64,000 nt of DNA from a bacterium (lineage in GTDB: Bacteria > Bacteroidota > Ignavibacteria > UBA10030), in contig JAZDJN010000087.1 in assembly GCA_043803945.1 (NCBI GenBank), positions 224,001-288,000 on the forward strand, read 5' to 3'. Within the stretch, counting starts at the first letter, position 1. Each line of letters begins with the position of its first letter. Under the pieces are notes generated by a model, which saw only the letters and a program-made list of their open reading frames with translations, searched no databases and had not been told where the DNA came from. The position numbers and the translations under genes are program-made. This document shows, in pieces, positions 1-64,000 of the stretch.

Positions 1-222
1 CCCGGGGATTTCATCGGCTATATATTCTTTCGGATCGGTTGAACATGACCGGTGACAGAGATTGGCATACTCTCCCAACAGAACGAGATCGGGATGTTCC
101 CTGCCAATCTCGTTGAGCCTCTGATCGAGATCTTCCCAGGTTCGTTCCTGCCGCTTTTTAAATGTCTTCCCTTCGATTGTTGCAGGAAGTTGAACGATTC
201 CAACTTGGACTTTAATCTTCAT
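1..222 (-). CDS. Carbon-nitrogen hydrolase (nitrilase/amidase) family protein, 5' part only (runs off the window edge)
   Basis: Not in the ORF track. ATG at 222 overlaps the symporter TGA (ATGA). My translation: MKIKVQVGIVQLPATIEG...HPDLVLLGEYANL...YIADEIPG. This matches the family N-terminus (V.IVQ, DL.LL.E catalytic Glu region, E.IPG). Confidence 0.75.
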   Translation of the reverse strand, partial: MKIKVQVGIVQLPATIEGKTFKKRQERTWEDLDQRLNEIGREHPDLVLLGEYANLCHRSCSTDPKEYIADEIPG

Positions 223-2006
223 TGGTTGTTCTCCTGAATGGTGCGGTCTTGATAGCGCTTCATGGACAAGAACATGATTCCTCCAAGGAGAAGGAGCATT
301 CCGCCTGCAATCAGATTTATCGTTGAGGGTGCTATGGGAGAGTCCGGCACAACAACACAGAGAACGAGAACGGTGCCGAGCACGAGGCAGATTGTCCCAA
401 TCAATTTATAGGTTTGTAGGTTTGTTGCTACTGATGCTGCGGCATCGCCAAATGCGGGCCGCCGGAGATCAGCCTCAAACTCAAGAATATGTGCGTTTCG
501 CGGATCGTCTGCCTTGAACCATCGGGCAGAGACAAAGAAGACTGTCGTAGCGACCACCGCCTCGCTGAGCATATTACGGACATACGCATGATCATTCCAG
601 ACACCGGCAATCATCAGCGTCAGCGCCACACCGACAGCGGCTGAGCATGAGGCGATCCCCGACCACCATGGCGTACGGCGATAGAGAATACCGAGAGCGA
701 CTGGCATCATAAATGCAGCGGTAAGGGAATAAAATTGCAGGGCAAAGTTAAATGCTCCTCCAAGTCTGGGAATATACAGAGCAACAGCAACACCAAGCAC
801 GCCGATGATAAACATGCTGGCTCGTGCAATTGTCATCTGATTGTTTTCCGACGGCTCTCCCCTGCCGTATTTTACCCGGAGCGGCACATAGACATCTCTC
901 GTCAGCGTCGCCGAAAGCCAGTTGAATGAATCGTTCGCCTGCCCGAGCGTTGCAGAGAGTATTGCCGATACCACAAATCCAATCATCCCATGCGGCAGCA
1001 GCATCAGCGCAAGACTGACAAACGAAGCCTCTGCGGGAACAGCAAAATTCGGCCACAATGCGTTGATGTTCGGAAAGATGATTCTCGATGCCATCACAGG
1101 AAGAATCCACAGGATCGGCCCGACAAATGAAAGCACTGCACACAGCAGCGCCATTTTTTTTGTGTCCCGTTCGTCCGGAACACTTTGATAGCGCTGAATC
1201 ATCTGCCAGCCAACATTATATCCAAGAACTACGCTGATAAAATAGGAAAAGAGAAACAACGGATCTGCCGCATCGCCGGAGATACTAAGAAAACCCTTGG
1301 GGGCTTCGTTGAGAAGCCGTGTAAAACCAGCGAAGAATCCGCTTCCATCACCAAGATGAATAAAGGATACAGGAAAGAGAATTAACGTCATGACACAGAT
1401 GATGATGGCCTGAACGGTATCCGAAAGCACGGCGGCCCATAATCCGCCGATGACCGAATAGAGTACCATCACCGTACCAACGAGAACAATTGAGAGTTCA
1501 AACCCGGAAAGCGTAACGATGCCCAGAGTAAACGATTGATCGTTAAATCCGAGTGCCGTTGAGACAAAGATACAGAGGATGTAGAGTCCCTGTCCGATAC
1601 CGACAATTTGCGGGACAATCGATGTGACCGTATAAAAATAAGTGGTCGATGAAGAGAACCGGCGTGTAAGAAAGTGGAGCGGTGACTCCAGCCGTGCACG
1701 CCGCCAGAGTTTTCCAAAGATGAAATATCCCAGAAGGTACGCCCAGGTTGCACTCGTAAAGAGGATCGTGGCACCCAGACCATTCAGGTAGGTGAAGCCT
1801 GCCGCCGCTACGAACATAAATGCCGAATATCCGGAGACCCAATTGGAGAGCCCGGCAACAAGCCAGGGAATTCTTCCGCCGCCTTTAAAATACTCTTCGG
1901 TGTTACGATTCTGACGGGCAGCAAACCAGCCGACCCCGATGATGATGACGAAATACAGTCCGATTAAACCATAATCAAGCCAATTGACTGTATTGAATTG
2001 CGGCAT
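219..2006 (-). CDS. Sodium:solute symporter (SSS family)
   Basis: 595 aa, many TM helices; N-terminal LDY...EEYFKGG..IPW, GGLWAAVLSDTVQ, QRY motifs. Confidence 0.92.
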   Translation of the reverse strand: MPQFNTVNWLDYGLIGLYFVIIIGVGWFAARQNRNTEEYFKGGGRIPWLVAGLSNWVSGYSAFMFVAAAGFTYLNGLGATILFTSATWAYLLGYFIFGKLWRRARLESPLHFLTRRFSSSTTYFYTVTSIVPQIVGIGQGLYILCIFVSTALGFNDQSFTLGIVTLSGFELSIVLVGTVMVLYSVIGGLWAAVLSDTVQAIIICVMTLILFPVSFIHLGDGSGFFAGFTRLLNEAPKGFLSISGDAADPLFLFSYFISVVLGYNVGWQMIQRYQSVPDERDTKKMALLCAVLSFVGPILWILPVMASRIIFPNINALWPNFAVPAEASFVSLALMLLPHGMIGFVVSAILSATLGQANDSFNWLSATLTRDVYVPLRVKYGRGEPSENNQMTIARASMFIIGVLGVAVALYIPRLGGAFNFALQFYSLTAAFMMPVALGILYRRTPWWSGIASCSAAVGVALTLMIAGVWNDHAYVRNMLSEAVVATTVFFVSARWFKADDPRNAHILEFEADLRRPAFGDAAASVATNLQTYKLIGTICLVLGTVLVLCVVVPDSPIAPSTINLIAGGMLLLLGGIMFLSMKRYQDRTIQENNQ

Positions 2007-2027
2007 GAGGTCGATACGGTTGTTGTG

Positions 2028-3485
2028 TTACACGTGTGCAACAACGCATGCTCCACGCGTCGGGCGGCATGGAAAGATGGCATCGTTGAGATTGCCGGTT
2101 AGAACCAGACCATGCTTCGCTGCGTAGTCTTGATAGAATGATTGTGTCAAACGCTGTACAAATTGTTCAACGTGTGCTGTGGGTACGGCATTCACCGTAC
2201 ATCCGCCGAATCCCGCTCCGGTGAGCCGTGCTCCAAGTGCTCCATGGGAACGAGCAAGCAACACCAGAGCATCTAATTCCTGACAGCTCACTTCATAATC
2301 GTCACGGCAGCTTTCATGCGAGTCATTCATTAATCTGCCGAACTCCGCAATGTCATTCTTTTCAAGAGCAATGACCGCCTTTTCTACTCTCCGTGCTTCC
2401 GTGGTGACATGACGATACCGCTGCCATACCTTAAATCCTTCGGATGGAGGCGGTACTGTTGCACCTGTTTGCAGTGTAGTATAGTTCTTTTCAACATCGG
2501 CAGCCGACATACCAAGCCGTGCAGCGACACCCTCCAGAGAGAGCGGGGACTCTCCAATGGCATTATACGCCAATTGGTCAACATCAAGTTCGCTTATTCC
2601 TAACGCTTCCGATGAAAGGTGGGCAAGCAGTTTTGCCTGTACCTGTTTGCCATAGTTCTGAAGAACCGCTTTTGAAATCAGAGCTGTCGCAATACGCCCT
2701 TCGACGACACGCCGGTTATAGTGGTAGCGGGTGTTCTCACTCTTTGCTGATCGAACCAAACTATAGCAGACAACAAAGACAAGAGAAGAAGGCACCGGGA
2801 TTGATTTCGTCCGGAGCGGAAAGAAATCAATTTTTAATGCATGTTTTTCCTGACCAAGCAGCGAAATCGCCTGATCCATTCCGCCGCCTTCCATCCCAAC
2901 ATACCGTTCAGACTTTGCAAGCAGCTCGGCGAGAGCCACACGGTCATAGGCCGCATTATTGATGACAAGAAAGGACAGCGCTGACGCGACAGTCAATGCC
3001 GATGAAGAAGAGAGGCCTGCTGACTCGGGAACATTTCCTCCCACCACAGCTCGAAAACCAACAGCCGTTTCTTCCTTCACCGTTTGGCTGGACAACAGTC
3101 CCTGGACCGCGGCTTTCACATAGTTGCCCCAGTCACCCTGGGCAAAGGGCGGGACGGGAAGCGAAAAAGAAAATGACCTTGGCTCGAATGCCGGGTGTTC
3201 ATTCGCCACATCAATGATGTTGCCCTTCGAAGGCCCGAGAACAAAAATAATATCACGGTCGACTGCCATTGGCAGCACGGGGTATCCGTTGTAATCTGTG
3301 TGTTCACCAATCAGGTTTACACGTCCGGGTGCACGTACCACGATGGAAGGCTCTTCGCCGTACGTGCGTCGATAAAGATCAAGCAAGGTTCTATAGCGCG
3401 TTAGATGTGACGATGCTTCCTGTGCGGAGCAATTGTAAATTGAGGGTAATTCATTTTCGATTTTTTGTTCAAGAACACCGGCCAC
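2028..3485 (-). CDS. galK: Galactokinase (GHMP kinase), long form resembling eukaryotic GalK/GalNAc kinase
   Basis: RAPGRVNLIGEHTDY signature, P.SAGLSSSSA ATP loop, GGMDQ, GARLTGAGFGGC; GTG start with AGGAG RBS. Confidence 0.88.
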   Translation of the reverse strand: MAGVLEQKIENELPSIYNCSAQEASSHLTRYRTLLDLYRRTYGEEPSIVVRAPGRVNLIGEHTDYNGYPVLPMAVDRDIIFVLGPSKGNIIDVANEHPAFEPRSFSFSLPVPPFAQGDWGNYVKAAVQGLLSSQTVKEETAVGFRAVVGGNVPESAGLSSSSALTVASALSFLVINNAAYDRVALAELLAKSERYVGMEGGGMDQAISLLGQEKHALKIDFFPLRTKSIPVPSSLVFVVCYSLVRSAKSENTRYHYNRRVVEGRIATALISKAVLQNYGKQVQAKLLAHLSSEALGISELDVDQLAYNAIGESPLSLEGVAARLGMSAADVEKNYTTLQTGATVPPPSEGFKVWQRYRHVTTEARRVEKAVIALEKNDIAEFGRLMNDSHESCRDDYEVSCQELDALVLLARSHGALGARLTGAGFGGCTVNAVPTAHVEQFVQRLTQSFYQDYAAKHGLVLTGNLNDAIFPCRPTRGACVVAHV

Positions 3486-3548
3486 AGTGACACTCTCCTT
3501 TTTTGGGGTATGAACTACTCAGCGAAGTAGGTAATAACTTATTTTCAA

Positions 3549-3797
3549 CCACCGATGGCACACGGATAATCACTGAGAAAAGAAAGTAGTTTGGGTTCTT
3601 GTCCGAAGAAATAACAACTATAATCATTATCTGTATTCGGGGTTGTCCAAAAAGAAAAATATTGTCTCACCCGAATGTTTTTATCGGGTGTCCAGTGCCT
3701 TTATCTTTCAAATACCTGGATTCCCGATAGAAGCACTCGGGAATGACAGTCTATTTTTTTCTTTTTGGACGGCCCCACATCGGTGTGTCATCGTTGG
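3549..3797. repeat. Outer imperfect inverted repeat enclosing a MITE-like element
   Basis: ccaccgatggcacacggat (3549-3567) versus the reverse complement of 3779-3797 (ccaacgatgacacaccgat), 16/19 identical. Confidence 0.6.
3639..3776. mobile_element. 138-bp MITE/REPIN-like non-autonomous element
   Basis: Terminal inverted repeats GGGGTTGTCCAAAAAGAAAAA and TTTTTCTTTTTGGACGGCCCC. Interior has two REP-like hairpins (cacccga..tcgggtg; attcccga..tcgggaat-gac). No coding capacity. Confidence 0.7.
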
Positions 3798-3824
3798 AAA
3801 ACTTTCTAAGCAATTGTCTATCAT

Positions 3825-4706
3825 CTACCATTCTACAACAGGATAATGAATTTTCAACCATTCTTGAACCATGATGATATCGTCCTTATAGGTAAGGTCG
3901 GGCACATGTTCTTTCCATGGAATGAGTTTCAATGCATGCCGATTGGCATTCACAAGATTGGTGACAGCAACAACCAGTTCCTTCTCCTGCCGCTTCGGGG
4001 TAATCGGGCAATGCTCCAGTAATGGAAAAATCATATCGTAGTTCAGACGGAAGATATTCATGCTGACCCGAATCACCCCTTGGGGGTCTTTCAGCCTTTC
4101 GATCTCTTCCACTGATGGCTTTTCCACGATCTCGAGAAGGTATCCGTCAGTATCTCTCTTTGTTATTCCAAATCCTGCAATGCGATCCTGGTTGAATTCC
4201 AGGCCCGATCGATCATAGTCGGGATAAGCATTCGGTGCTTCACACTCCCGGAGGGCTTCTAACACCTTGAGTGAGTAGAGATTATCACTGTTGCACACAA
4301 TAAAATCTCCGCCTTTCCAGTCGGGTCGCACCAGCACTGCCTGATAGAGTGCATCGGCTGTGCCCATCGGTTTCTCTCTGCCCGCGGGAATTCTCTGGAC
4401 AGCATAGGAGATCTGGATTCCGTGGAAATCGTTGCCGCTATCCTTCTCACCATAGTATTGCCGCATAGCGTTATCGCGTTCGCCAATGACGATAGTCACA
4501 TCGTTGATCCCTGCTTTCTTGGCATTGTTGAGCATATAGTCAAGAAACGGTCTTCCCTGCTCACCAACACCGATCATGCCTTTTGTCCGTTCATCGGCCT
4601 GTTTGGCAAGTCCTGAATCGACTTGTGCCTCAGGGCTGCTCGTGCGTTTCATGCGGGAGGAGACACCGCCTGCGAGTATGACTAATCGTGGATCACTCTT
4701 GATCAT
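3825..4706 (-). CDS. Sugar-phosphate nucleotidyltransferase (NTP_transferase family)
   Basis: VILAGGVSSRMK, EKPMGTADAL, VCNSDNLY, IVEKP motifs. Confidence 0.85.
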   Translation of the reverse strand: MIKSDPRLVILAGGVSSRMKRTSSPEAQVDSGLAKQADERTKGMIGVGEQGRPFLDYMLNNAKKAGINDVTIVIGERDNAMRQYYGEKDSGNDFHGIQISYAVQRIPAGREKPMGTADALYQAVLVRPDWKGGDFIVCNSDNLYSLKVLEALRECEAPNAYPDYDRSGLEFNQDRIAGFGITKRDTDGYLLEIVEKPSVEEIERLKDPQGVIRVSMNIFRLNYDMIFPLLEHCPITPKRQEKELVVAVTNLVNANRHALKLIPWKEHVPDLTYKDDIIMVQEWLKIHYPVVEW

Positions 4707-5621
4707 TTATCGATCACCCTTTCGTTTTGCCGCTGCATACTCTGCTGCAAATGCAGCGCCATCGAACCCTTCGTCCGATGGTAATTCCGAGAGATATATT
4801 TTTCCGCCATGCTGGCGCGATAATTTTGCCGCTATATGGATCTTCACTGCTTCCAATGGCGCCTCAAGAGCAAAGGGAATAGTGTTCCCTTTGATCATCT
4901 CGACAAAGTGAAGAAGAAATGTATCATAGGGGCTCACAGGATCTAACTTCAGGGTATGTATACCGGTTACCGTGTAGAGCGAAAGCGACCACTCATGGAA
5001 CGACTGCTGCAATTGCAGCATGAGCACAAAGCCATTATGATAGGTGACGGCAACGAAGCATGATTTATTTTCAGCGACATACTCGACGTAGTTAGCTCCT
5101 GTGCCGATCACACCCTGTGCCATTTCCGTGGTGTGGATGCCATAGCTGAAGAAATCACCGGGGCCGGTAGCGACCGCCGTCATGATGTGGCCGAACTGGC
5201 TTGCCTGTGCCCTGAATGCCGCGACTTCATCGACATAGCGGAGTGCCGAGCCGCCAAAGATTGGCGTTTTTGTCTGGGCATAGATTTCCAGCAGCCCGTA
5301 AATATCACGCACTTTCCCTACCATGGGCTTATCGATTAAGACAGGTCTGTTTGCTTCAAGAAATGGATATGCCTTATCCAGGTGCTTGTCCCAGTTTGTA
5401 CCGTGGATCATCACGGCATCTACATGGTCAATCATTTCCTCCAAACGTTTGCAGACAACCGGAATGTTATTTTCCCTCGCAAACTGAAGGTCGTATCCTT
5501 CAGGCCAGACATCCCTCCCATCCCAGAGTGCATTCACTCGCACATCGGGCAGGCCGCTTAAAATGCGGGTAAATGCCTGCGGGTGCGAGGTGTCCAGATC
5601 AACAAGTCCGATGCGAATCAT
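4707..5621 (-). CDS. Gfo/Idh/MocA family NAD(P)-dependent oxidoreductase
   Basis: N-terminal Rossmann-type RIGLV.LDTSH, PVLIDKP, YGIHTTE. Confidence 0.8.
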   Translation of the reverse strand: MIRIGLVDLDTSHPQAFTRILSGLPDVRVNALWDGRDVWPEGYDLQFARENNIPVVCKRLEEMIDHVDAVMIHGTNWDKHLDKAYPFLEANRPVLIDKPMVGKVRDIYGLLEIYAQTKTPIFGGSALRYVDEVAAFRAQASQFGHIMTAVATGPGDFFSYGIHTTEMAQGVIGTGANYVEYVAENKSCFVAVTYHNGFVLMLQLQQSFHEWSLSLYTVTGIHTLKLDPVSPYDTFLLHFVEMIKGNTIPFALEAPLEAVKIHIAAKLSRQHGGKIYLSELPSDEGFDGAAFAAEYAAAKRKGDR

Positions 5622-5631
5622 AGTAATTCCC

Positions 5632-6552
5632 CTATGTCGATCGTTTGATGAGTTTTGATTTAATCAACTGGTATTGTGTCGCAACAACAACTCCGGCCAT
5701 AATTAATACCGAGCCGGCAATATCGATCATGCTCATGCTCTCGCCCAACCAGATAATGCCTGCAATGACGGCAACGATTGGAATGATGTACGCCATCATC
5801 GAGAGAGCAACGATATCCACTCGTTGCAGCAAGTCAAAATACAGTGTGAATGCCAATGCCGATCCGATGAAGCCGAGGTAGCCGAGAGCGAGCAGCATTT
5901 CAATCGTGACTTCAAATTTCGGGACACCGGAGATCCATGAAAAAGGAAGAACAATGAGGCCCGCTGTAATCTGCATCCACATGCCGAATCCAATCTGATC
6001 GTGCCCCTTAAAGTGTTTTCTGGCGTAGACCTGCGCCATGCCGATTGTCACCGAGCTGAAGAGAATCGCCAAACCACCTAGAAGAACGTTTCGGCTCTCA
6101 GTAGAGAAAGAATCATCCGAGAAAAGAACAAGAACACCGGCGAAGCCGAGTAGAAGTCCAATGATCCTGATGATATTCAGTTGATTTTCTTTCAGGTAGA
6201 AATGCGCAAGGATGGCAATGAAAAATGGTACTGTGCTTTGGAGGATCGATCCCAATCCGCCGGAGATATATTGCAGGCCCCAGATTGTCAGTGCCATCGG
6301 GATGCCAACCCAGAGCAATCCAACGATGACCGCCACTTGGATGGCCTGAGCATCGTAGTGTTCCTTCTTCGGGCTGCGAAGCCGCCAGAGCCAGAGTCCG
6401 AGTCCACCGAGAATACAGCGCAAGCTTCCCAACAAAATCGGATCACAATGACGAAGCCCAACGATTGTAACGGGCCAGGAAAATCCCCAGATAAAAGTTA
6501 ACAAGAGAACGATGCTATAATCGACTACTTTTGAATGTTTGGATATCACCAA
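5632..6552 (-). CDS. DMT/EamA family transporter
   Basis: About 10 TM helices, IWGFSW N-terminal motif, two-repeat EamA layout. Confidence 0.88.
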   Translation of the reverse strand: MVISKHSKVVDYSIVLLLTFIWGFSWPVTIVGLRHCDPILLGSLRCILGGLGLWLWRLRSPKKEHYDAQAIQVAVIVGLLWVGIPMALTIWGLQYISGGLGSILQSTVPFFIAILAHFYLKENQLNIIRIIGLLLGFAGVLVLFSDDSFSTESRNVLLGGLAILFSSVTIGMAQVYARKHFKGHDQIGFGMWMQITAGLIVLPFSWISGVPKFEVTIEMLLALGYLGFIGSALAFTLYFDLLQRVDIVALSMMAYIIPIVAVIAGIIWLGESMSMIDIAGSVLIMAGVVVATQYQLIKSKLIKRST

Positions 6553-6639
6553 TGCATTCTCCCAACGTTGGACACATGTCTGATAAAGTGCCTAAGTATA
6601 ACTATTTATCGGGATAAGGGCTACAATAAATTGCATCTT

Positions 6640-6694
6640 AAGCATCTAACCGTTCGCTACACATCGGATTTCGCTGGGAGACAAACGGTTAGGT
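6640..6694. repeat. Short hairpin element, copy 1 (downstream of glycerate kinase)
   Basis: AAGCATCTAACCGTTCGCT at 6640-6658; arm ctaaccgtt pairs with aacggttag (6684-6692). Confidence 0.55.
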
Positions 6695-6698
6695 CGCA

Positions 6699-7871
6699 TC
6701 ATCTTTGCATGCGATGTAAAAGAATTTCCGTCTTTGCCGATACGATTTCCGCGGCGCTCTTCATTGCCTGCTCAGGATCAATTCTCTCGTCAACAAGCGT
6801 TTCGACATCACACAGAAACTGTTCGTTGACAAAGCGATCTCTTTCTCCAACTATTGATCCGACAATTGCTGCCACCGGAACGTTACTTCGCTGTGCCCGC
6901 TCAACGACTCCCGAAACTGCTTTCCCGAAAAACACCTGCTCATCCAATCTCCCCTCACCAGTAATGACAAGATCGGCAACGCACACACGCTCATCGAATC
7001 CTGTTACATCGAGCACAACATCGATACCACGACGCATCTTTGCACCACAAAACGCTATCAGTCCTGCACCCAGGCCGCCCGCTGCACCCCCACCCGAAAT
7101 AGAGAGGACATCCAATCCAAGATCATTGCGAACTACCGCGGCATAGTGCATCAATGCTTCATCAAGAATGAGAACATCTTCTTTCGTTGCACCTTTTTGC
7201 GGGCCATAGATTGAGGAGGCGCCCTCGTTTCCACACAAGGTATTCTGGACATCGGAGGCTATCATAATGCTCACGCTGTTCAGACGAGCATCCAGATTAC
7301 CTGTATCAATCTTGTGGAGCGCGGCAAGTGCTGCTCCGCCGAAAGGAATATCGTACCCATCGTGATCAAAGAATCGAGCACCAAGCGCCGAGACCATACC
7401 CGCTCCGCCATCGTTGGTCGCACTGCCGCCAATACCAATGATGATCGATTGTACTCCATGATCGAGTGCAACTCTCAGTAATTCTCCAACGCCCACAGTG
7501 GTTGTATGTTTGGGATCCCGCTTATCGCGGGGAACCAGATTTAATCCGGCCGCTTCAGCCATCTCGATAATAGCTAGCATACCGTTCTGAGCGATCCCCC
7601 ATCGTGCCTGAACATGCTGACCTGGTAATGGTCCTTGAACTTTGGTCGTTTGGATTTCCCCGCGGAGTGCGTGGCAGAGAACGCTGACCAGGCCTTCCCC
7701 TCCATCCGAAACCGGATGCAGCATCACTTTGCAGTTGGGGAAGACGTTGTGTATTCCACGCGTCATCGCGCGTGCAGCTTCGAGTGCGGTGAGAGAGCCT
7801 TTAAATGAGTCTGGGGCGAGCAGTATGGAGTTCAAGTGATGTATGGAAATCCTCCCGGTATGAACACTCAA
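6699..7871 (-). CDS. glxK: Glycerate kinase (GlxK/GarK family)
   Basis: APDSFKGSL, DGGEG, IIEMAEAAGL, GGSATNDGG, YGPQKGA, GAAGGLG, ITGEGRLD. Confidence 0.93.
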   Translation of the reverse strand: MSVHTGRISIHHLNSILLAPDSFKGSLTALEAARAMTRGIHNVFPNCKVMLHPVSDGGEGLVSVLCHALRGEIQTTKVQGPLPGQHVQARWGIAQNGMLAIIEMAEAAGLNLVPRDKRDPKHTTTVGVGELLRVALDHGVQSIIIGIGGSATNDGGAGMVSALGARFFDHDGYDIPFGGAALAALHKIDTGNLDARLNSVSIMIASDVQNTLCGNEGASSIYGPQKGATKEDVLILDEALMHYAAVVRNDLGLDVLSISGGGAAGGLGAGLIAFCGAKMRRGIDVVLDVTGFDERVCVADLVITGEGRLDEQVFFGKAVSGVVERAQRSNVPVAAIVGSIVGERDRFVNEQFLCDVETLVDERIDPEQAMKSAAEIVSAKTEILLHRMQR

Positions 7872-8150: not shown

Positions 8151-10484
8151 CTATTTCTTTAGATCGGTAAATCCCGGTACGCGCCACTGGAAGTTCGGAT
8201 CGACATACGGCTCGTCGTTCTCATGGCCGGTCATTAGCTCGATCTTTCTCTTCAATTGCTCGCCAAAGTTTTTATAATAGATGAACGTCGTTTCTCCAAC
8301 ATCCGAGACGATCATCCAGTTTGTCTTTGCGGTCTCCCAGAGATTCAGGAGCACTTTGGTGTTTTCGATCTCATCGAGAACCATTTCCTTCAAGAGTTGA
8401 CGAGATTCTTTTTTCACCTTCTTATCGGTCGTTTCGAGATACGTATGGACACCCGCCACCCATGTTGTAACATTCCGTTGTGTTCTGTACCAGCAATGCA
8501 GTGCAAGCATGCGATCATAGAGGTCTTCGGCACATGCCTGTGCCTGCGATGTTGTTGCCCTCTCCTTCATTGTACGGGAAAGATTCAGCGCGGCATCCAT
8601 CTGGACAAAGAGATCCCGATTGATGAGGCGCAAACATGTATGGGCGTGAGCGGGATCCACAAGATCGAATCCGACGTCGTACCGGAAGTCAATACGACAC
8701 CGGTTATGCGAGGTGGCAAGTAAGAACTTTTCATAATAGGCGCGATCGTCTTCCGATATTATTTCAATGTTTGGCACGATAGGCCGCGTTGCGAGTCGAT
8801 ACCAAACACCCCACGACGAATAGATCCAGATCGGAAGCGGGAATGAACGATAGGCCTCATTGGAATGTGTCCATACCTTTACCAAATCTTCGGCAAGGTC
8901 GGAGCCGATCCACTCGGTTGCTTTTCTTAAAAGGAACTTCTCGAGGTTGAGATTGCCGTTAAACTGGAAGGCTCTAATCAATTCCTGGTTGATATTGTAC
9001 GGAGCGAACGACTGGGGAACCGGCCCGCCGGTAAAGCATGCCGTGGTTACAGTCTGTTTCTTCATATCCTGCAGTTTATCGTAGACGAGCTGCGGGAACG
9101 GAATGCCCACTAATGGTTCATGGTTGCAGAAAACGCTTGGATTGAAATAGACATCGGCTTCTGATTTCTTCTTCCGCAATTCCTCCAGGATTGGTTTCTC
9201 GTCATCGACATAGCGGTTATGGAGCGCTGTGCCATGGATTTCTCTCGCCTCCTTATACTTCGGGTGTTTATAGGCAAGCTTCCACCCTTTTGTCAAGAGC
9301 GACGACACCTCAACATCGAGTCCATCGCCCAACTGTTTCCAGATGTAGTCATGCTCTGCCCAGAACGGCTCAAGGCGGATCAGGGTGCGGAAGTTTGGGT
9401 TGACCTTACGTCCTGCATCGCGCAAGATGCGCATAAACCGGACAAGGTTATTCGCTGCCGACTCGGCGATTTCCGTATCTCCCTTCCACTCGCGGATCAC
9501 ATAGCCTCCGCCGTTTCTGCCGACATAGAGTGAACTGGTGTATTCAAACCCTGCGCCGCTGTCATTCGACCAGATGGAAATGTAGTCTAATGCTGGAACT
9601 TCGCGCAACAGGTTCTCCATCAGCTCGGCATAATGTTCCTGCACAACCGGATGTGCCACAGAAAGATTGAAGCGCGGGTGCCAGCTTCTGATGGGATGAT
9701 CGACACGCGCCCCACGGAGCATCGGATAGCGCTGCAGGAGGTTGTCGGGAACTGAGCGCGGCTCAAAACAAACCATTCCCGGTGACAGGCCGTACTTATC
9801 TGCCAGGGCAGCGTTCGTCTTCAGGTAATTCAGATTTGCTTGCAGGTAATCGTCATCATAAATCCCTTTGTTTAATCGGCTTGACACAAATTGGTCGAGG
9901 GCTGGGCAGTAAGTGTAAAACCGATGCAGTAATTCCCCCTGCGGGCCGCGTTCAAACGGAACGGCAAAGGCCAGACCGTTGACCTCAACATGGGAAAATC
10001 CGAGGCGTGCTAAATTTTTGACGTGCTCTTCACGGTTGAAGTTGTGTGTTGTTCGCGCATGCTGCGTAAGGAAAATGTCGTAGGCAGGACGCATGCGCGG
10101 AAACGTCGGGTGAAGAATTTTTCCTAATTCAAGTTGGTCGATACTGAGCTTACTCAATTCGTTGATAACGTGTGAGTAGAGATAGTACAGAAGATGCGGT
10201 TTCGAGGTCAACAGTTCAACGCCCCGCCCCCTTTTTACTCTCACCAACATCCAGTCCTTGTTGCCTTTCAACGAAGGGTGAATTGTTTTCCACAATGCCC
10301 GATCGGTGACTACGGCGATACGGACCGATCCATGGGGTGCGTCGAGTTTCGGCGATTGCTGGATCTCCGCCGATCCGCAGTGCAGTACCTTGATCTCATT
10401 GGCTACCGTCTGTTCTACGGTTGCGGAGGGTGAGGTGTAATAAATTGTTTTGCATGATAAAATCACATCAATTAACGTTGCCAT
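8151..10484 (-). CDS. Large cytoplasmic hypothetical protein, possibly a glycoside-hydrolase-like TIM barrel
   Basis: Long ORF (track start 10511, likely ATG at 10484), no signal peptide. The LLTSKPHLLYYLY segment and WSNDSGAG are only reminiscent of GH20/67/115-like architecture. Confidence 0.6.
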   Translation of the reverse strand: MATLIDVILSCKTIYYTSPSATVEQTVANEIKVLHCGSAEIQQSPKLDAPHGSVRIAVVTDRALWKTIHPSLKGNKDWMLVRVKRGRGVELLTSKPHLLYYLYSHVINELSKLSIDQLELGKILHPTFPRMRPAYDIFLTQHARTTHNFNREEHVKNLARLGFSHVEVNGLAFAVPFERGPQGELLHRFYTYCPALDQFVSSRLNKGIYDDDYLQANLNYLKTNAALADKYGLSPGMVCFEPRSVPDNLLQRYPMLRGARVDHPIRSWHPRFNLSVAHPVVQEHYAELMENLLREVPALDYISIWSNDSGAGFEYTSSLYVGRNGGGYVIREWKGDTEIAESAANNLVRFMRILRDAGRKVNPNFRTLIRLEPFWAEHDYIWKQLGDGLDVEVSSLLTKGWKLAYKHPKYKEAREIHGTALHNRYVDDEKPILEELRKKKSEADVYFNPSVFCNHEPLVGIPFPQLVYDKLQDMKKQTVTTACFTGGPVPQSFAPYNINQELIRAFQFNGNLNLEKFLLRKATEWIGSDLAEDLVKVWTHSNEAYRSFPLPIWIYSSWGVWYRLATRPIVPNIEIISEDDRAYYEKFLLATSHNRCRIDFRYDVGFDLVDPAHAHTCLRLINRDLFVQMDAALNLSRTMKERATTSQAQACAEDLYDRMLALHCWYRTQRNVTTWVAGVHTYLETTDKKVKKESRQLLKEMVLDEIENTKVLLNLWETAKTNWMIVSDVGETTFIYYKNFGEQLKRKIELMTGHENDEPYVDPNFQWRVPGFTDLKK

Positions 10485-10548
10485 AGGGTTCCCTTTATCT
10501 CGCTTGTACACTGGTATGAATTAATAATTGAAGTTCAGTATTGACGAT

Positions 10549-11922: not shown

Positions 11923-11970
11923 TCATGCTCCTCTGTTGTTTTACTGCACGAGAAATTCTGAATCACGGAT

Positions 11971-12170
11971 CTAACCTTTCACAGTGTGTATTGCTTCCCG
12001 AATTGCCCTCAAATTATCCAACAGAGTTCCAAAGGGAACGACACCGGCTCCTACGATAAATCCAGGGTAGCCATCCCCTTCATGGATGCAGGCCAGAGTC
12101 CGCTGATGCAATGTTTCAGGCGTTGCTGTAAGAAAATCCCGGGAATTGATATTGCGGCGAAATGCTTTAT
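11971..12170 (-). pseudogene. 3' fragment of a second UROD/MtaA-family gene
   Basis: KAFRRNINSRDFLTATPETLHQ...GYPGFIVGAGVVPFGTLLDNLRAIREA aligns with the C-terminus of the adjacent gene (RAFRRNIDSREFLEASPEVLHQ...GYNGFILGTSVVPYGTPLENLKAIRDA). No N-terminal part present. Confidence 0.8.
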
Positions 12171-53741: not shown

Positions 53742-53767
53742 TGTTGATACCTTTCGATCACTACCCA

Positions 53768-55690: not shown

Positions 55691-55727
55691 GATCACTCCT
55701 TTATTATTGAGAGCTGTAGGTTTACCA

Positions 55728-57677
55728 TTAAGGCCGTTCCGTCGGTTGCGATACACCTCGAATCTCAGACTTCTTCCCCAGATACCACAAGAAAGCTCCC
55801 AGCAGTACTAAGAACGCGATCATCAGCACCATGATTATTCTTTCCTGACCACTGATGTCGGTAAAGAACATTGTCGTCATGAGTCCACCGATAACAATCA
55901 TTGTTGCTCCAACTAAGGGAAATACCGAGATTTGCATTTTCCCCGCTCCAAACACTTCTTTTGCGACATCAACCGGGGTGTCGAGCTTTTTGAAGAGCTC
56001 GAATATCTTTTTTCTATCTTCTTCTGTGTCAAGTGTAAAGAGCTTTGCAAAACCGAACAGGCTGATACCAAAAGCGGCTGCACAGATCCAACCAAGAAGC
56101 TTAACCATTACTGCTCCTTCCATGCCAAACCAAGATGCGAAACCCTGTATCGCTGCCGGTACTTCGCCTACGATTGTGTTTGTAAACAACGCTCCCAATG
56201 CGACCGCAATAAAAAGGCCGATCGCGGCAAGGGCACCTTTACTGCTGACATAGAGTCGTCCTGTCCACAAGGATGTTGTATAAATGCTGAGGGATAACAC
56301 GATGGCAAGGTAAACCTGCGGACCGATATTCCATCCGAGAATATAGCGACCGGCCACTCCAGCCAGCAATCCCCAGGTGATCGATGCTACCGCAGACCAT
56401 TTGGGAACGCGGCGGTTTAAGAGTCCGAAACACAATGGAATATTCACCGGTACATTAAAAAGCGTAAAAAAGGCCTGCATCATATTGAAAATGCCAAACT
56501 TGCTGTTGATAAAGAGAACGGCGAGGCCTGTTACTATCAATCCCAGCGAGATGGAGGAGATCTTTCCGATTTTCAAGAGTTCTTCATCTGTTGTTTTCGG
56601 ACGGAAGACACCTTGCACCATATCGCGAGCGACAATGGAGGAGACCATATTATAGACATAGCTGAGCGTGCTCATCGTTGCAGCGAGCATGGCTGCAATG
56701 AACATTCCGATTAATCCGTTCGGCAGCAGTTTCACACAAAGTCCCAGGTAAACAAGGTCCTGCGGATTGCTTGCAAGATAGGGCTGGAAGAAATCTACTT
56801 TCGAAAGATCGGGCCAGATGACGCGAGCTACAAGCGGCGGAATACCAAACATTAACGGGCCCGCAAGCCCAAGCACAGCGGCAAAAAAACCAACTTTAAG
56901 TGCAGATTTCTCGTCTTTGACCGAATAGAACCGTTGACCTGAACCTGCCGCAAATCCGATTGTGGAAATGACGAGGATGGAGAGCAGCCAGTGTTCATCG
57001 TAATAGACCCCGTTATAGGTGTGTTCAAACGTGAGAGGGGAGAGGGATTCAAATAATTTTCCAAATCCTCCCACAAGCATAACGCTGAGCGGCATAACGA
57101 TGAACGTTGTCGCAAGAAGAATTACTCCTTGAACAACATCTGTAACGGATACAGCCCAAATGCCGCCAAGAAATGTGTAGGCAAGGATGACCCCTCCTGT
57201 TACAAGGGTCATTGTCGTTACATCAAGATTGAGAATGGGCGCCAAGAGTTTCGATGTCGCAGCAAGTTGGACACCGGCAGAAAGGGTGAAGTTGACGGCA
57301 ATAATCCACCCCAGTAGTTGTTGTGTGGTAACGTTATACCGCGTATGTGTATATTCAACCGGTGAAATTGAGCGTGATCTTCTCCAGAGCTTAGCGGTCA
57401 GCAGTGTACCAAAGAAATAGGCAATTGAACCGAGCGAGAACCATATCAACATAAAAGGCCCTGTGCTGTACGTGAATCCCGCCGCACCAGAGAATGTCCA
57501 GGCCGTAAAGTTTGCCATGTAAAGCGTCATACCCGATGCCCACCAGGGTATCATGTTACCGCCGGCGAAATATTCTTTCGCTCCTTTGTTGAACCGCATG
57601 AAGTACAGGCCAATGCCCAGCATGAAAAGAAAATAGGATCCAACCACAACATAGTCGAAGATGTTCACCGATTTCAT
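55728..57677 (-). CDS. Sodium:solute symporter (SSS), tandem copy 1
   Basis: Same motifs; collinear with and highly similar to 53768-55690. Confidence 0.92.
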   Translation of the reverse strand: MKSVNIFDYVVVGSYFLFMLGIGLYFMRFNKGAKEYFAGGNMIPWWASGMTLYMANFTAWTFSGAAGFTYSTGPFMLIWFSLGSIAYFFGTLLTAKLWRRSRSISPVEYTHTRYNVTTQQLLGWIIAVNFTLSAGVQLAATSKLLAPILNLDVTTMTLVTGGVILAYTFLGGIWAVSVTDVVQGVILLATTFIVMPLSVMLVGGFGKLFESLSPLTFEHTYNGVYYDEHWLLSILVISTIGFAAGSGQRFYSVKDEKSALKVGFFAAVLGLAGPLMFGIPPLVARVIWPDLSKVDFFQPYLASNPQDLVYLGLCVKLLPNGLIGMFIAAMLAATMSTLSYVYNMVSSIVARDMVQGVFRPKTTDEELLKIGKISSISLGLIVTGLAVLFINSKFGIFNMMQAFFTLFNVPVNIPLCFGLLNRRVPKWSAVASITWGLLAGVAGRYILGWNIGPQVYLAIVLSLSIYTTSLWTGRLYVSSKGALAAIGLFIAVALGALFTNTIVGEVPAAIQGFASWFGMEGAVMVKLLGWICAAAFGISLFGFAKLFTLDTEEDRKKIFELFKKLDTPVDVAKEVFGAGKMQISVFPLVGATMIVIGGLMTTMFFTDISGQERIIMVLMIAFLVLLGAFLWYLGKKSEIRGVSQPTERP

Positions 57678-57840
57678 CCGCTCTGTCCTTTATCAGCTTC
57701 TGATTTATTCGTAGTGTTCTCGTTAGTAGAAGAAAAATCACTGCCGCAAGTTCGCCAGGTGTAGAAAGACGGTTAACCAAATTCTTTGACCCCCTCTTTA
57801 ATTATGAGGGTGACTAAAAAGAAAAAATAACCCTAACCCA

Positions 57841-57931
57841 AAGGCGTCCCCGCCTGCTCATTAAGAATCATTCAGGGTGGGCAGGTCGCCGAGAGAAAGA
57901 GTGAAATTATTATGCTCGGCGGAGACGCCTT
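57841..57931. repeat. Intergenic inverted repeat with an inserted hairpin
   Basis: aaggcgtccccgcc versus ggcggagacgcctt (13/14 complementary); internal cctgctca...tgggcagg. Confidence 0.55.
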
Positions 57932-57959
57932 CGCACTAGAAAATACTTTTAGCTCAATC

Positions 57960-59456
57960 CTAGTTTCCGATCGCGGCAAGATGCATAATTGCCTCCTGGC
58001 TTGCCTCGCTGCGATTCAATTCACCTGCTATGTGCCCATCTCGCATCACATAGATCCGATCGGCAAGTGTTAACACTTCTGGTAATTCCGATGAGACCAG
58101 GAGGATTGAGATTCCGTTCTCTGCCAGTTCAAAAATCAGGCGATGGATCTCTGCCTTGGCTCCGACATCAATACCGCGTGTCGGTTCATCCAAAATCAGC
58201 AACTGCGGTTTTAACCAGAGCCATTTTGCCAGCACCACCTTTTGTTGATTTCCACCGCTCAATGTTGCCGCTTCGATATCAATTGATTCTGCCTTAATGG
58301 CAAGCTGACTCAATCCCTCCCGTGCAAGCGATGCCTCGGTGGATTTGTTAATAAAGCCAGCTTTTGAGATCTGTTTCAATCCCGCCAGTGAGATATTATG
58401 TTTGATTGAGTAAGCAAGAATCAATCCCTCTCCTTTTCGATCTTCGGGAACAAATCCAATACTCTGTGAAATCGCATGCTCGGGATTGTGTATCGTCACC
58501 TGCCTGCCGTTAAGAAAGAGCTCTCCGTTATCAATGCGATTCAACCCGAAGACGCCTTTGGCTACTTCACTTCTGCCCGAACCAACCAATCCTGCAAGGG
58601 CAACAATCTCTCCTTTCCTAACGGTCAGCGAAATAGTGCTGACCGGGATCGGAGCATTTTTCATTGATACATTCTTCAATTCCAGGCGAACGTCGGATAA
58701 GATGTTCTCTCTCGCTCCGACAGCGCTATCGGTGAGCGCCCTCCCAACCATCATGCTGATGAGATCCCTCTCGCTGATACCGGCCACCTCAGCCGTACCT
58801 GTGTAACGGCCATCGCGCAGCACGGTGACACGATGGCATAATTCATAAATTTCTTTCAACCGGTGCGAGACATAGATAATTGTCAATCCTCCGGCGTTTA
58901 ATTTTTTCAGCAGAGAAAAGAGAACGGTTGTTTCGTGTTCGGTAATTGATGCCGTTGGTTCATCGAGGATGAGGATTTTCGTAGAGAAGGCAAGCGCCCT
59001 TGCAATCTGCACTAGCTGTACCTGAGCCGGTGCGAGATCTATAAGCAGCGTTGTCGGTTTAATGTTCAATTCGAGGTTTGCTAGAATCTCTTCTGCGCGT
59101 TGATTGAGCCATCCGGAGTCGACGAACCCCAGCCGATTTGTCTTTTCATGGCCGAGAAAGATGTTTTCCGCAACCGACATGTGCGGCACCAGGTTCGGCT
59201 CCTGATAGACCGTGCTGATTCCCTCACGCTGTGCTTCAACGGGACTCAGCAGTTCTTTCACCGCTCCATAGAGTGTAATCGTGCCCGCATCTTTCCAAAT
59301 CACGCCGGAGAGAATTCTCATCAACGTCGACTTGCCGGCACCATTCTCGCCAAGCACGGCATGCACCTCGCCTTGCTTAATGCTGAAGCTTACCTGATCG
59401 AGAGCGATCGTTCCACCAAACCGTTTAGAAATATTTTGAAGCTCTATACTGTTCAT
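57960..59456 (-). CDS. Sugar ABC transporter ATP-binding protein (RbsA/MglA-like, two NBDs)
   Basis: GENGAGKST, LILDEPT twice, LSGGNQQKV; ATG 59456 overlaps the xylulokinase stop. Confidence 0.93.
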   Translation of the reverse strand: MNSIELQNISKRFGGTIALDQVSFSIKQGEVHAVLGENGAGKSTLMRILSGVIWKDAGTITLYGAVKELLSPVEAQREGISTVYQEPNLVPHMSVAENIFLGHEKTNRLGFVDSGWLNQRAEEILANLELNIKPTTLLIDLAPAQVQLVQIARALAFSTKILILDEPTASITEHETTVLFSLLKKLNAGGLTIIYVSHRLKEIYELCHRVTVLRDGRYTGTAEVAGISERDLISMMVGRALTDSAVGARENILSDVRLELKNVSMKNAPIPVSTISLTVRKGEIVALAGLVGSGRSEVAKGVFGLNRIDNGELFLNGRQVTIHNPEHAISQSIGFVPEDRKGEGLILAYSIKHNISLAGLKQISKAGFINKSTEASLAREGLSQLAIKAESIDIEAATLSGGNQQKVVLAKWLWLKPQLLILDEPTRGIDVGAKAEIHRLIFELAENGISILLVSSELPEVLTLADRIYVMRDGHIAGELNRSEASQEAIMHLAAIGN

Positions 59457-60943
59457 TTGGTTGACAATACCGAATTTAATATTTCCAGCCATTGCCGGTA
59501 AGCTTCTACATATGGCTCTCTTTCTTTCTCTGGCTCAATGGTCCCAATGTGTTCCAGTCCATTATAAGCATCCTCAGTCGATGAAACCAATCCAGCACCC
59601 ACCGCCGCAGCACGTGCTGCTCCCTGCGATCCATCCGTATTATAGAGCTCAATGCTTATGCCCGAGACGGAGGCAAGCGTCGAGCAAAAAACGGGACTGA
59701 GAAACATGTTCGCTTTTCCCACCCGCATCACCTGCGGTTTGATCTCCATAGATTCCATGATGCCGATACCATAGTGAAAAGAAAAGGCGACGCCTTCCTG
59801 AACGGCGCGGAGAACATCTTCCTTTGAATGAAGATTGAAATTAAGCTGTGTAAGGCGTGCACCGAGATCATTATCGCGGAACATGCGTTCGGCGCCATTG
59901 CCAAAAGGCAGCACGACAAGACCTTTCGCTCCGATTGGAGAAGCGCCGGCAAGCTCGTTCATTGCGGGATAACTGAGTGTTGAATCGGAAACCAGTTTCC
60001 GTATCCAACTGTTAGAAATCCCTGTCCCGTTAATACACAACAGTACTCCGATGTGGGGTGCCTTTTCTGTATGGTTAACATGAGCAAATGCATTCACCCT
60101 CGATTGCGGATCGCACTTCAACGAACCGCTGACAGCATAGACCACACCCGATGTTCCGGCTGTGGCGGCAATCTCCCCCGGTTCAAGTACACGTAACGAG
60201 AAGGCGTTATTCGGTTGATCGCCTGCACGATACGAAACAGGTATACCGATAGGTAATCCCAGCTCTTGCGCCATCGCTTCACGCAATTGTCCCTGTACTC
60301 CGATTGATGGCACAAGGTTCGCCAGAAGATCTTGCGGAATCTGGTAATACTTCAGCAGTTCCTCCGCAACGGCATGGCGCGGAAAATTCCAGAACATTCC
60401 TTCTGAAAGGCCCGATATCGTTGTGGTGCACTCGCCGGTCAAACGCAGCGCGATATAATCGCCGGGAAGAAGAATCTTATATATTTGTTCGAAGATCTTC
60501 GGCTCATGTTCTTTCACCCACCGCAATTTCGAAGCGGTGAAATTTCCAGGAGAATTCAGAAGCTGGTACAAACATTCTGTCTCCCCAATTTCCTGAAACG
60601 CCCGGCGTCCTATTTCTGCCGCACGGCTGTCGCACCAGATAATCGAGGGGCGTAACGGTTTACCGTTGGTATCCACCAACACCAGCCCATGCATCTGATA
60701 GGAAATGCCGATGGCTTTAACCTTTAGAAGCGCGTCAGGAGCCTGTGAGCCCAGAAGGCGTGTCACCGCTTTCACAGCCTGCCACCAATCATCGGGATGC
60801 TGTTCTGCCCAGCCCCGTGCCGGAGAATGGATCGTCATTTCCCTTTCCGGATAGCTTGCATAGGCAAGAACTGTTCCGTGTTCGAGATCAACAATCGATC
60901 CTTTCACAAACGAACTGCCAACATCATAACCGAGTGCAATCAT
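59453..60943 (-). CDS. xylB: Xylulokinase (FGGY family carbohydrate kinase)
   Basis: GYDVGSS, YQMHGLV, IIWCDSR, GDQPNNA, GTSGV, PFGNGAER. Confidence 0.85.
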   Translation of the reverse strand: MIALGYDVGSSFVKGSIVDLEHGTVLAYASYPEREMTIHSPARGWAEQHPDDWWQAVKAVTRLLGSQAPDALLKVKAIGISYQMHGLVLVDTNGKPLRPSIIWCDSRAAEIGRRAFQEIGETECLYQLLNSPGNFTASKLRWVKEHEPKIFEQIYKILLPGDYIALRLTGECTTTISGLSEGMFWNFPRHAVAEELLKYYQIPQDLLANLVPSIGVQGQLREAMAQELGLPIGIPVSYRAGDQPNNAFSLRVLEPGEIAATAGTSGVVYAVSGSLKCDPQSRVNAFAHVNHTEKAPHIGVLLCINGTGISNSWIRKLVSDSTLSYPAMNELAGASPIGAKGLVVLPFGNGAERMFRDNDLGARLTQLNFNLHSKEDVLRAVQEGVAFSFHYGIGIMESMEIKPQVMRVGKANMFLSPVFCSTLASVSGISIELYNTDGSQGAARAAAVGAGLVSSTEDAYNGLEHIGTIEPEKEREPYVEAYRQWLEILNSVLSTK

Positions 60944-60965
60944 TTCACTGTCTTCCAAACATTAT

Positions 60966-63248: not shown

Positions 63249-63257
63249 GAATTATTC

Positions 63258-64000
63258 CTATCTATATGAAATAAGAACGATTGCTTTTTTCTTCAGCGGG
63301 AAGCTTGCATCGGCATACGAACTTTTTTCCACGCTGACATTTCTGTGCTGCACCGGTTTTCCGTTCACCAGAATGGATCTGGCTTTTGTTCCTTCCGGCA
63401 GGAGGAGATGCAGGTCGACTGTTGCTTTCCCTTGAAGTTCCAACACGATATTCTTTTTCGCTTGATCATGTACATAGGAATATTCAAGAGCTGCACCCGA
63501 TGCACCATAGGTGACACAGACCGAAGCTTCATGCTGGCCCGCGGCGATCCAGCGGGGAGAGAGTTTCACATGCTGGAACAGCTTATGCTGATCGACAACG
63601 CCAGCCAATCCTTCGGTGAGAGCGGAAAGCATTGACGACGATCCCCATGCATCCCTCGGCAAAGCATCGGGGCTTGTGCTGGTTTCAAGGCTTGCCGGCT
63701 CTCCATCAGGGAAGTACCAGAGATACGATGTATTGTTTTGGGTGAGCTGCTCGTATTTCAGAAGCTGCTGTACTCCATATTCCTCAAATCCATGGTCCAG
63801 AGCGGCACGGGCAATCTCACCGCCGACAAGCGGCATAATACCTCCATTACAATATGCACCCGGTTTGATCTTTTCATCGCCATAAATGCCGGCTGGAAAC
63901 GGCGGATCGATACTGAACCATTCTGCAAAGGCCTTCGTTGTTACTGCGCGCTTTTGGTATTCACGAAGAATGCTTGCAGCCATCGCGTGGGTTGCCATAC
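63258..64000 (-). CDS. C-terminal part of a hypothetical glycoside hydrolase-like protein (5' end outside the window)
   Basis: Open to the window edge; Y.NGGIMP, AWGSSSMLSALTEGLAGV followed by a beta-rich tail, typical of (alpha/alpha)6 GH C-termini. Confidence 0.55.
   Translation of the reverse strand, partial: MATHAMAASILREYQKRAVTTKAFAEWFSIDPPFPAGIYGDEKIKPGAYCNGGIMPLVGGEIARAALDHGFEEYGVQQLLKYEQLTQNNTSYLWYFPDGEPASLETSTSPDALPRDAWGSSSMLSALTEGLAGVVDQHKLFQHVKLSPRWIAAGQHEASVCVTYGASGAALEYSYVHDQAKKNIVLELQGKATVDLHLLLPEGTKARSILVNGKPVQHRNVSVEKSSYADASFPLKKKAIVLISYR

Follow-up and report, generated by a model that had tools for sequence, protein, structure and literature searches.

The 64,000-nucleotide window analysed here (C87:224001-288000 of G000, the 5.54-Mb, 100% complete Ignavibacteria genome under study; positions without a contig prefix are counted within the window) lies inside a 79-kb conserved block of putative glycan-degradation genes. 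We regard the block as a genuine and conserved supercluster that resembles a polysaccharide utilization locus (PUL) without SusD and is probably co-regulated. On balance, we favor the reading that it is likely a single regulon repressed by an IclR-family protein, whose products would import and dismantle a uronic-acid glycan, probably salvaging methyl and amide-nitrogen groups on the way. The linkage of the genes, their synteny and co-occurrence, and a promoter-operator signature at two sites were all directly observed, and we take them in turn.

An earlier reading of the window, hereafter the preliminary description, had counted about 50 co-oriented, often translationally coupled genes. Both points stand. 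The window is occupied by 45 minus-strand genes of at least 100 aa, with no gene placed on the plus strand by the gene caller and no tRNA. Its positions 1-222 hold a nitrilase-family gene only up to codon 74, and the minus-strand run reaches past the window to C87:222336-301071 (78.7 kb; 56 called units, two of them short open reading frames, ORFs, of remnant type). Neighboring genes are 30 bp or less apart at 33 of the 55 junctions, compared with 34% of 3420 same-strand pairs genome-wide, and they overlap at 11 of the 55, compared with 13%. Under independence, about 0.04 runs of 56 genes would be expected. The family assignments were confirmed for MtaB, LarA, glycerate kinase, NSAR/OSBS, class III aminotransferase, M20, cyclase, amidohydrolase_2 and three SSS symporters. 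A long-start ORF at 31325-33553, which overlaps 33109-34164, was rejected in favor of the likely gene at 31325-33067.

Co-regulation is suggested by the promoters. We extracted 14 receptor-upstream regions, three of which belong to unrelated receptors and have no promoter-operator. The upstream regions of locus-head receptors (G000 and ten others) carry, in 11 of 11 cases, TTGACA-17-TA...T and, 6-8 bases further on, a 28-nt motif. In G000 this promoter-operator, P1, is found ahead of the TonB receptor at C87:301567-301631. A matrix built without G000 ranked P1 first genome-wide (28.8 bits) and the site at 48933-48906, before iclR, second (P2, 21.6 bits). Of 143 near-consensus promoters in G000, only P1 and P2 have the operator, the next best score being 4.7 bits, and within the run no other near-consensus promoter lies on the minus strand. 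Among 14 distinct iclR upstream regions (a further two were too short), 12 have an operator of at least 14 bits at a distance of 29-37 bp from the gene; one of the two misses, in G063, scores 12.2 bits.

The operator consists of three boxes that alternate in direction. IclR-family sites of this layout are described in the accessible part of PMC8222616; the spacer of the second box is one base shorter here than in the group 1 consensus of that paper. The arrangement thus resembles an IclR-family regulon, with iclR preceded by the same conserved three-box site as the target operon. In a sample of 120 class members, an iclR orthologue was present in eight, all of them positive for U607, a secreted protein whose gene served as the marker for the locus. 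IclR is therefore the likely repressor of P1 and P2 through putative binding to these sites, which would define two repressed units, one of about 29 kb and the other of about 51 kb, possibly with weak internal promoters or terminators. Loss of co-regulation had been named in the preliminary description as an outcome that would speak against a single locus; the promoter-operator shared by the two sites points to co-regulation. No Rfam match at gathering score was found in the window, L001 or L002, and hence there was no riboswitch evidence.

We next consider conservation. U607 occurs in 16 of 60 surveyed relatives; 555 stretches encoding a relative were detected in all, of which the best 80 were kept. 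Gene order closely follows that of G000 in most of 78 named loci. The titles of the records that contain close U607 relatives name Ignavibacteria, Bacteroidota, KSB1, Kryptoniota and Calditrichota. L141 and L151 are labelled Chromatiales and Actinomycetota, and neither label was used to judge taxonomic range. In fetched contigs, the order is near-identical to that of G000 in 12 relatives of two families, and near-complete copies are present on long contigs. G074 and G075 have much the same gene set, reordered and at 30-70% identity. KSB1-labelled G071 retains GH38-GH3-ROK-lyase-URO-D-corrinoid-MtaB in order, and G072 follows the G071 order from GH3 onward, with SSS and nitrilase genes in addition. 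The neighborhood comparison that the preliminary description had proposed as a check thus found sub-blocks linked across genera, families and KSB1-labelled records.

Co-occurrence in the 60 relatives was scored at identity thresholds that we set at the visible gap in each match list, which left out distant paralogues (in seven genomes for LarA, five for the aminotransferase, five for NSAR, two for the nitrilase and eight for MtaB). All genomes with orthologues of the amidohydrolase (15/60), nitrilase (at least 55% identity, 10/60), LarA (at least 58%, 10/60) and MtaB (at least 61%, 8/60) are U607-positive, as are 15 of the 16 with the aminotransferase (at least 65%) and 12 of the 14 with NSAR (at least 56%). 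The three exceptions are fragments or incomplete genomes that have other locus genes. Glycerate kinase is less specific (18/60, 11 of them U607-positive). Core and accessory genes were counted in six single-contig copies (G059, G062, G063, G067, G068 and G075). All six have the receptor triad, a core-MetE-like gene, U526, the 760-aa glycosidase-like gene (GH760), the aminotransferase, one of the propellers (BNR1), U607, GH38, FAH, M20, ROK, U786 and a corrinoid gene, the last in an adjacent opposite-strand block in four of the six. The amidohydrolase and glycerate kinase are each present in five, and NSAR in four.

The preliminary description had noted the absence of a SusC/SusD pair and proposed uptake by SSS symporters. 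The window indeed has no such pair, but SSS-only uptake does not hold, as a TonB receptor heads the run outside the window. Its 863-aa neighbor has no SusD Pfam match. In the PULs of Bacteroidota, a head TonB receptor is combined with periplasmic depolymerases, inner-membrane transporters, cytoplasmic catabolism and a local regulator. The locus resembles this layout in having a TonB receptor, co-localized CAZymes, transporters, catabolic genes and a local regulator. It differs in that no SusD was found, the receptor is followed by type-IX-type cargo and a PorV-like gene, the regulator is an IclR protein acting, as we propose, on sigma-70-type promoters, and most depolymerases belong to no family. 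In Ignavibacteriales clusters, susCD is scarce and substrates are unmatched, as far as the accessible text of PMC10576277 goes. G000 carries many paralogues of the receptor and of PorV. Its receptor, cargo and PorV are 70-77% identical to the triad of family f4 (L203, G039:C22), compared with about 40-55% to relatives of its own family, which suggests that the uptake module has been exchanged between lineages.

Export signals were assessed by eye and with a heuristic for hydrophobicity and twin arginines. They are present on the propellers and on the proteins that resemble lyases or glycosidases; no convincing signal was seen on U786, GH38 or the small enzymes. At the Pfam level, the CAZymes of the locus are GH38, GH88 and heparinase II/III-like proteins. 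The secreted 760-aa protein next to ROK matches heparinase III by profile (E 1.4e-5), and the neighbors of U797 in the Atlas are clusters containing GH127 and GH76. PDB profile searches returned nothing for U786 or U797, one chance-level match for U607, weak matches for U526 and for the 729-aa and 760-aa glycosidase-like proteins, and one weak amidohydrolase match. Structural models suggest folds for two of these families. The AlphaFold model of U786 (pLDDT 77.0), a protein with no Pfam or PDB sequence match, is closest to GH138 (Z 15.1, rmsd 4.9, 575 aligned residues), with GH20, GH67, GH115 and GH84 scoring nearby; it has the three-domain, TIM-barrel-containing fold of the GH138/GH67/GH115/GH20 superfamily, and identity to the structural matches is 9-12%. 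The U607 model (pLDDT 79.8) resembles toroid/beta-sandwich lyases (PL8/12/15/17/21/33/35; best Z 10.7, rmsd 7.0, 383 aligned residues; Foldseek E about 1e-5). The two unannotated families are thus predicted to fold as GH138/67/115/20 hydrolases and as polysaccharide lyases, respectively, which strengthens the glycan-cleaving part of the preliminary description.

From these assignments a pathway can be proposed. The receptor triad would bring oligomers into the periplasm, where four lyase-fold proteins, their propeller partners and the exported helical-barrel glycosidase-like proteins would cut them. SSS symporters would import the products, to be catabolized by the cytoplasmic GH138/67-like and GH38 hydrolases, kinases, isomerases, dehydrogenases and the FAH-family hydrolase; this step alone could supply lactate or glycerate for LarA and glycerate kinase. 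MtaB would move the methyl group of methanol onto a corrinoid protein, from which, in relatives, it might pass to the core-MetE-like methionine synthase or to URO-D/MtaA-like acceptors. Amide-linked acyl or amino-acid groups would be racemized and hydrolyzed by NSAR, M20, cyclase, nitrilase and amidohydrolase, and amino sugars transaminated. The parts of this proposal differ in strength. That the locus is one co-regulated unit appears highly probable, and a glycan substrate nearly as much so. Methyl capture is reasonably likely, whereas the chances that the amide-nitrogen groups belong to the same glycan are about even. A microbial-surface origin of the glycan is doubtful, and lactyl or glyceroyl substituents are unlikely.

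The same regulon might instead serve a mixture of small glycoconjugates from dead cells, such as mannosylglycerate-type solutes, glycosyl amides and N-acyl amino acids. The best NCBIfam match of GH38 is mannosylglycerate hydrolase MngB, a PfkB kinase adjoins it and glycerate kinase is in the same run; moreover, some relatives have an inserted trehalase/MGH1-like gene, and accessory genes are often gained or lost among copies. Yet every solute-hydrolase match is below cut-off (554 bits against 1138 for MngB), and the four exported lyase-fold or heparinase-like proteins together with the GH88-like genes indicate a uronic-acid polymer. We therefore consider this alternative unlikely and retain a polymeric uronic-acid glycan as the favored substrate. 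An SDR and GH88-like pair ends the locus in 10 of the 19 relatives in whose loci gene presence was also tallied; in G000 it is found at C106:6070-8590, in a run that a different receptor triad heads.

MtaB scores 527 bits in Pfam and is below the NCBIfam equivalog cut-off (420 of 720). The expected zinc-site motifs were located in its sequence. As in MtaABC systems, MtaB-family, corrinoid and URO-D/MtaA-like genes are neighbors in relatives; the corrinoid gene is present in 14 of the 19 relatives' loci, and in several relatives it lies next to MtaB. Unlike in MtaABC systems, MtaB sits among glycanases, and G000 has neither an adjacent corrinoid gene nor RACo. The core-MetE-like gene (15 of the 19 loci) encodes a protein of one catalytic domain, about 340 aa long, whose zinc (H-C-E-C) and homocysteine motifs match those listed for the core methionine synthases MesA-D in the accessible part of PMC7857596 (see also PMC7005905). 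In relatives, these motifs suggest methionine as one sink for captured methyl groups, and the methyl-capture chain is more nearly complete there than in G000. The likeness to MesA-D is one of motifs: the gene scores below the NCBIfam cut-off (310 of 406) and is absent from G000. Methyl handling is also coupled to polysaccharide catabolism in porphyran degradation, in which 6-O-methyl-D-galactose is demethylated oxidatively by a P450 monooxygenase with formaldehyde as product (PMC6292453, PMC9400963 and PMC10033563, as far as accessible). In contrast, no P450 is annotated in the locus, and its MtaB, corrinoid, MtaA-like and core-MetE-like genes are corrinoid-dependent and would work without oxygen. 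As to the release of methanol, no CE8 is found in the locus; one possibility is elimination from oxidized O-methyl sugars by the Gfo and TIM-barrel gene products.

Beside the locus in G059 (L051:8017-13976) and G062 (L162), an opposite-strand block encodes URO-D-like, Fe-S activator-like and corrinoid proteins, the activator being recognized by its N-terminus only; in G059, the block is preceded by the operator motif (23 bits). Outside the locus, G000 has corrinoid clusters at C92:8818-12884 and C99:21787-24789. By N-termini assessed by eye, one is beside PfkB kinase, lyxose-isomerase-like and URO-D-like genes, the other beside MTHFR-like and pterin-methyltransferase-like genes.

Turning to the nitrogen genes, the best PDB matches of NSAR/OSBS are N-acylamino acid racemases (E 3e-81), and an M20 gene is nearby, as expected for conversion of D-amino acids by an NSAR/OSBS racemase and an M20 deacylase. 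The equivalents of Ser135 and Arg299, which we take to bind succinyl (a role not confirmed in the accessible part of PMC12006748), are replaced (Ala; Gly in G000), and no succinyltransferase is annotated in the locus; in both respects the pair departs from that system. The equivalents of K263 and R266, described as NSAR/OSBS residues in the same source, are kept and G000 has futalosine-pathway family genes, which together favor a racemase role. The nitrilase, cyclase and M20 proteins retain catalytic motifs, the nitrilase E-K-C triad being intact in the full gene. The fourth amide hydrolase of the preliminary description, the tandem amidohydrolase_2 protein, is at most a putative one; it has a single HxH motif and none in its N-terminal domain. 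The amidohydrolase_2 family also includes lactonases and decarboxylases.

LarA keeps the equivalents of D72, R75, H108, H174, K184, H200 and K298 (NPN-binding and catalytic), LarC is present in the genome, and the match to NCBIfam LarA is 422 of 460. Its substrate loop (His-Leu-Met) has Leu-Met instead of Phe-Phe, for which reason a strict lactate racemase was rejected; Leu-Met is a signature of the Sar group of broad short-chain hydroxyacid racemases in the accessible text of PMC7583248. The FAH-family hydrolase matches include a rhamnonate-type model, below cut-off. FAH-family diketo-acid hydrolases release pyruvate together with lactate or glycerate from sugar backbones, so neither acid need be a substituent. 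The assignment of one enzyme to each substituent, central to the preliminary description, is accordingly unproven: MtaB, LarA, nitrilase and cyclase are dispensable, glycerate kinase too is accessory, and lactate and glycerate may be backbone products.

The glycan locus may alternatively have merged with an unrelated cassette for N-heterocycles or N-acyl amino acids (FAH-NSAR-DHOD-Fer4-cyclase-M20), for instance for reductive ring-opening as in pyrimidine degradation. The DHOD-like protein with its 4Fe-4S dicluster partner resembles a split PreA, the DHOD-Fer4-cyclase part is missing from three of the six full copies, and in G039 the cassette adjoins a receptor triad of its own, while most glycanase genes are on another contig. 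On the other hand, FAH and M20 are in all six full copies, and the cassette stayed among the glycanases after the reshuffling in G074/G075. The pyrimidine pocket is altered in 13 of 13 aligned orthologues (NISCP to DISSP, NT to NR), and this loss of the Asn-x-Ser-Cys-Pro and Asn-Thr motifs led us to reject a canonical pyrimidine dehydrogenase and argues against plain nucleobase degradation. A homologue search with the DHOD-like protein gave 206 matches, the 120 listed bearing only automatic names. Overall, a merger is rather improbable. Least likely of all is a plant or algal heteropolysaccharide (RG-II-like, arabinogalactan-protein or 4-O-methylglucuronate-bearing) with the nitrogen genes handling attached peptide: the GH138-, GH115- and GH67-like fold of U786, the rhamnose isomerase, and fen, soil and sediment isolates among the record titles of U607 relatives would fit, but GH20 and GH84 folds score about equal to the uronidases for U786, no GH28, GH78 above cut-off, GH106, GH43, PL1, CE8 or sulfatase was found among the locus proteins scanned, and the CE8 genes of G000 sit on another contig.

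A number of observations weigh against a single regulon for a methylated, amide-bearing uronic-acid glycan. Strand bias alone is weak evidence, and we rejected it as the main signal, because G000 holds two other co-oriented runs of similar size (85 and 78 kb) and mixed content. The operator score of P2, taken by itself, was equalled in block shuffles (maxima of 17.8-25.6 bits in eight shuffles), the site before iclR in G039 scores -5.5 bits, and 17 of the 120 class members are U607-positive without an iclR orthologue. Three weak hairpin/U-tract sites lie in gaps of the run, and the proposed 51-kb transcript follows from finding no further near-consensus promoter. The relatives are kin and thus non-independent, so co-occurrence partly reflects shared descent. 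LarA is in four of the six single-contig copies, and MtaB, nitrilase and DHOD-Fer4-cyclase are in three each; MtaB lies outside the locus in G005, G014, G036, G039, G047 and G059, as does LarA in G051, and in G039 (family f4) the gene set is scattered over at least five contigs. In G000, the corrinoid protein gene is missing from the locus (paralogues are on C92 and C99), and neither a core-MetE-like gene nor the RACo activator (PF14574) was found in the genome, which is 100% complete; its methyl arm may be dead. Finally, a lyase-fold Z near 10 is modest for helical proteins and speaks to fold, not function, and the function proposed here is a prediction from genes and folds.

We found no description of the locus in the literature covered, which was partial and left most subscription papers outside. 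What is new here is the promoter-operator at two sites, which predicts two co-regulated units. As a more tentative proposal, which we hold possible although not probable, the locus could be a two-transcript regulon of about 50 genes for one widespread acidic glycan, methylated and bearing amide decorations, in low-oxygen soils, peat and sediments. It would then include five or six CAZyme families that are so far unclassified, together with an oxygen-free B12 methyl route into methionine. Such a route, if real, would be an anaerobic counterpart of P450 sugar demethylation. Little is known about oxygen-free recycling of methylated and N-acylated sugars, and for most Ignavibacteria gene clusters no substrate has been matched (accessible part of PMC10576277). 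The locus supplies a bounded, conserved gene set with a candidate regulator and operator and several unclassified enzyme families; the effector of IclR would identify a key pathway intermediate and hence point toward the glycan.

Table 1. Features of the locus, listed from the head of the run; coordinates without a prefix are window positions
Feature	Coordinates	Strand	Remarks
TonB-dependent receptor	C87:298126-301071	-	heads the run; plug and carboxypeptidase-regulatory domains; 10-13 kb past the right edge of the window
863-aa secreted cargo	C87:295533-298124	-	weak type-IX C-terminal match
PorV-like barrel	C87:294491-295498	-	
PD40 propeller, 224-aa poorly conserved unknown, URO-D/MtaA-like, U629			between triad and U526, past the window; U629 is a U786 paralogue
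U526, 3' part	63258-64000	-	unannotated, 526 aa
Glycosidase-like, 760 aa	60966-63248	-	Tat-type signal; weak (alpha/alpha)6 matches; paralogue of 45110-47299
FGGY kinase, orphan sugar-ABC ATPase, two SSS symporters	53768-60958	-	symporters 62% identical to each other
L-rhamnose isomerase, LarA-family hydroxyacid racemase	51154-53771	-	isomerase above TIGR02629 cut-off
GH88 and TIM-barrel gene	48981-51149	-	specific to G000; in 0/19 relatives' loci
P2 promoter-operator	48906-48976	-	directly ahead of iclR; sigma-70 promoter 48976-48948, operator 48933-48906
IclR-family regulator	48124-48903	-	likely repressor of P1 and P2
TIM-barrel isomerase/lyase, glycosidase-like 729 aa, OYE flavoenzyme, DUF4432, Gfo/Idh/MocA dehydrogenase	41526-48121	-	729-aa protein Tat-type
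Heparinase II/III-like, class III (GSA-like) aminotransferase, tandem amidohydrolase_2 protein	36554-41480	-	heparinase-like protein Tat-type
Secreted array: U797, three BNR propellers, U580, U607	27047-36547	-	lyase-fold paralogues U580 (31325-33067) and U607 (27047-28870)
PfkB kinase, GH38	23385-27032	-	
Deletion scar	22875-23384	-	with DUF455 ferritin-like gene remnant
Nitrogen cassette: FAH-family hydrolase, NSAR/OSBS racemase, DHOD-like, 4Fe-4S dicluster, cyclase-family hydrolase, ArgE-like M20	17754-22874	-	
ROK kinase, heparinase-III-like 760 aa, aldolase remnant, PfkB hexose-phosphate kinase	13535-17757	-	760-aa protein secreted; remnant 14465-14590
Methyl cassette: URO-D/MtaA-like, URO-D C-terminal remnant, MtaB	10549-13269	-	remnant 11971-12237
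U786	8151-10511	-	unannotated; no clear signal peptide; predicted GH138/GH67/GH115/GH20-type fold
Glycerate kinase, EamA transporter, Gfo/Idh/MocA, nucleotidyltransferase, galactokinase	2028-7871	-	
Third SSS symporter, nitrilase-family gene (5' part)	1-2006	-	symporter 219-2006; nitrilase 1-222

The G000 copy is partly decayed, judging from remnants of an aldolase, a DUF455 and a URO-D gene (Table 1). The URO-D remnant of 88 codons shares about 58% identity with the C-terminal end of the URO-D gene next to it and occupies the site of the corrinoid gene of relatives. At the deletion scar, relatives carry aldolase, dehydrogenase, (PMI-like) and DUF455 genes; DUF455 is found between GH38 and FAH in many of them (for example, L111:18134-19363), mostly at 70-75% identity. 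The last gene of the run, encoding a membrane protein (L002:16336-17312), is in two pieces in G000 and a single 533-aa ORF in G029, and is possibly frameshifted. The sugar-ABC ATPase (57960-59492) has no permease or binding protein in the locus, and several relatives keep it beside the SSS genes. In several relatives, an accessory cassette between SSS and rhamnose isomerase comprises SDRs, an AHL-lactonase-like protein, an unknown protein, an acetoacetate-decarboxylase-like protein and a 2-hydroxyacid dehydrogenase (examples at L072:17021-17782, L062:18261-19004, L078:12060-12896 and L058:4597-5676).

Elsewhere in G000, C98:44955-90946 is a long plus-strand run unrelated to the locus, with many repeat-rich secreted proteins as judged by their N-termini. 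Short dispersed repeats with many copies elsewhere in the genome occur at 3486-3824, 13270-13534, 22875-23075, 29885-30341 and 57678-57959; one has 29-nt inverted arms (3639-3776), and these gap repeats are possibly small non-autonomous mobile elements.

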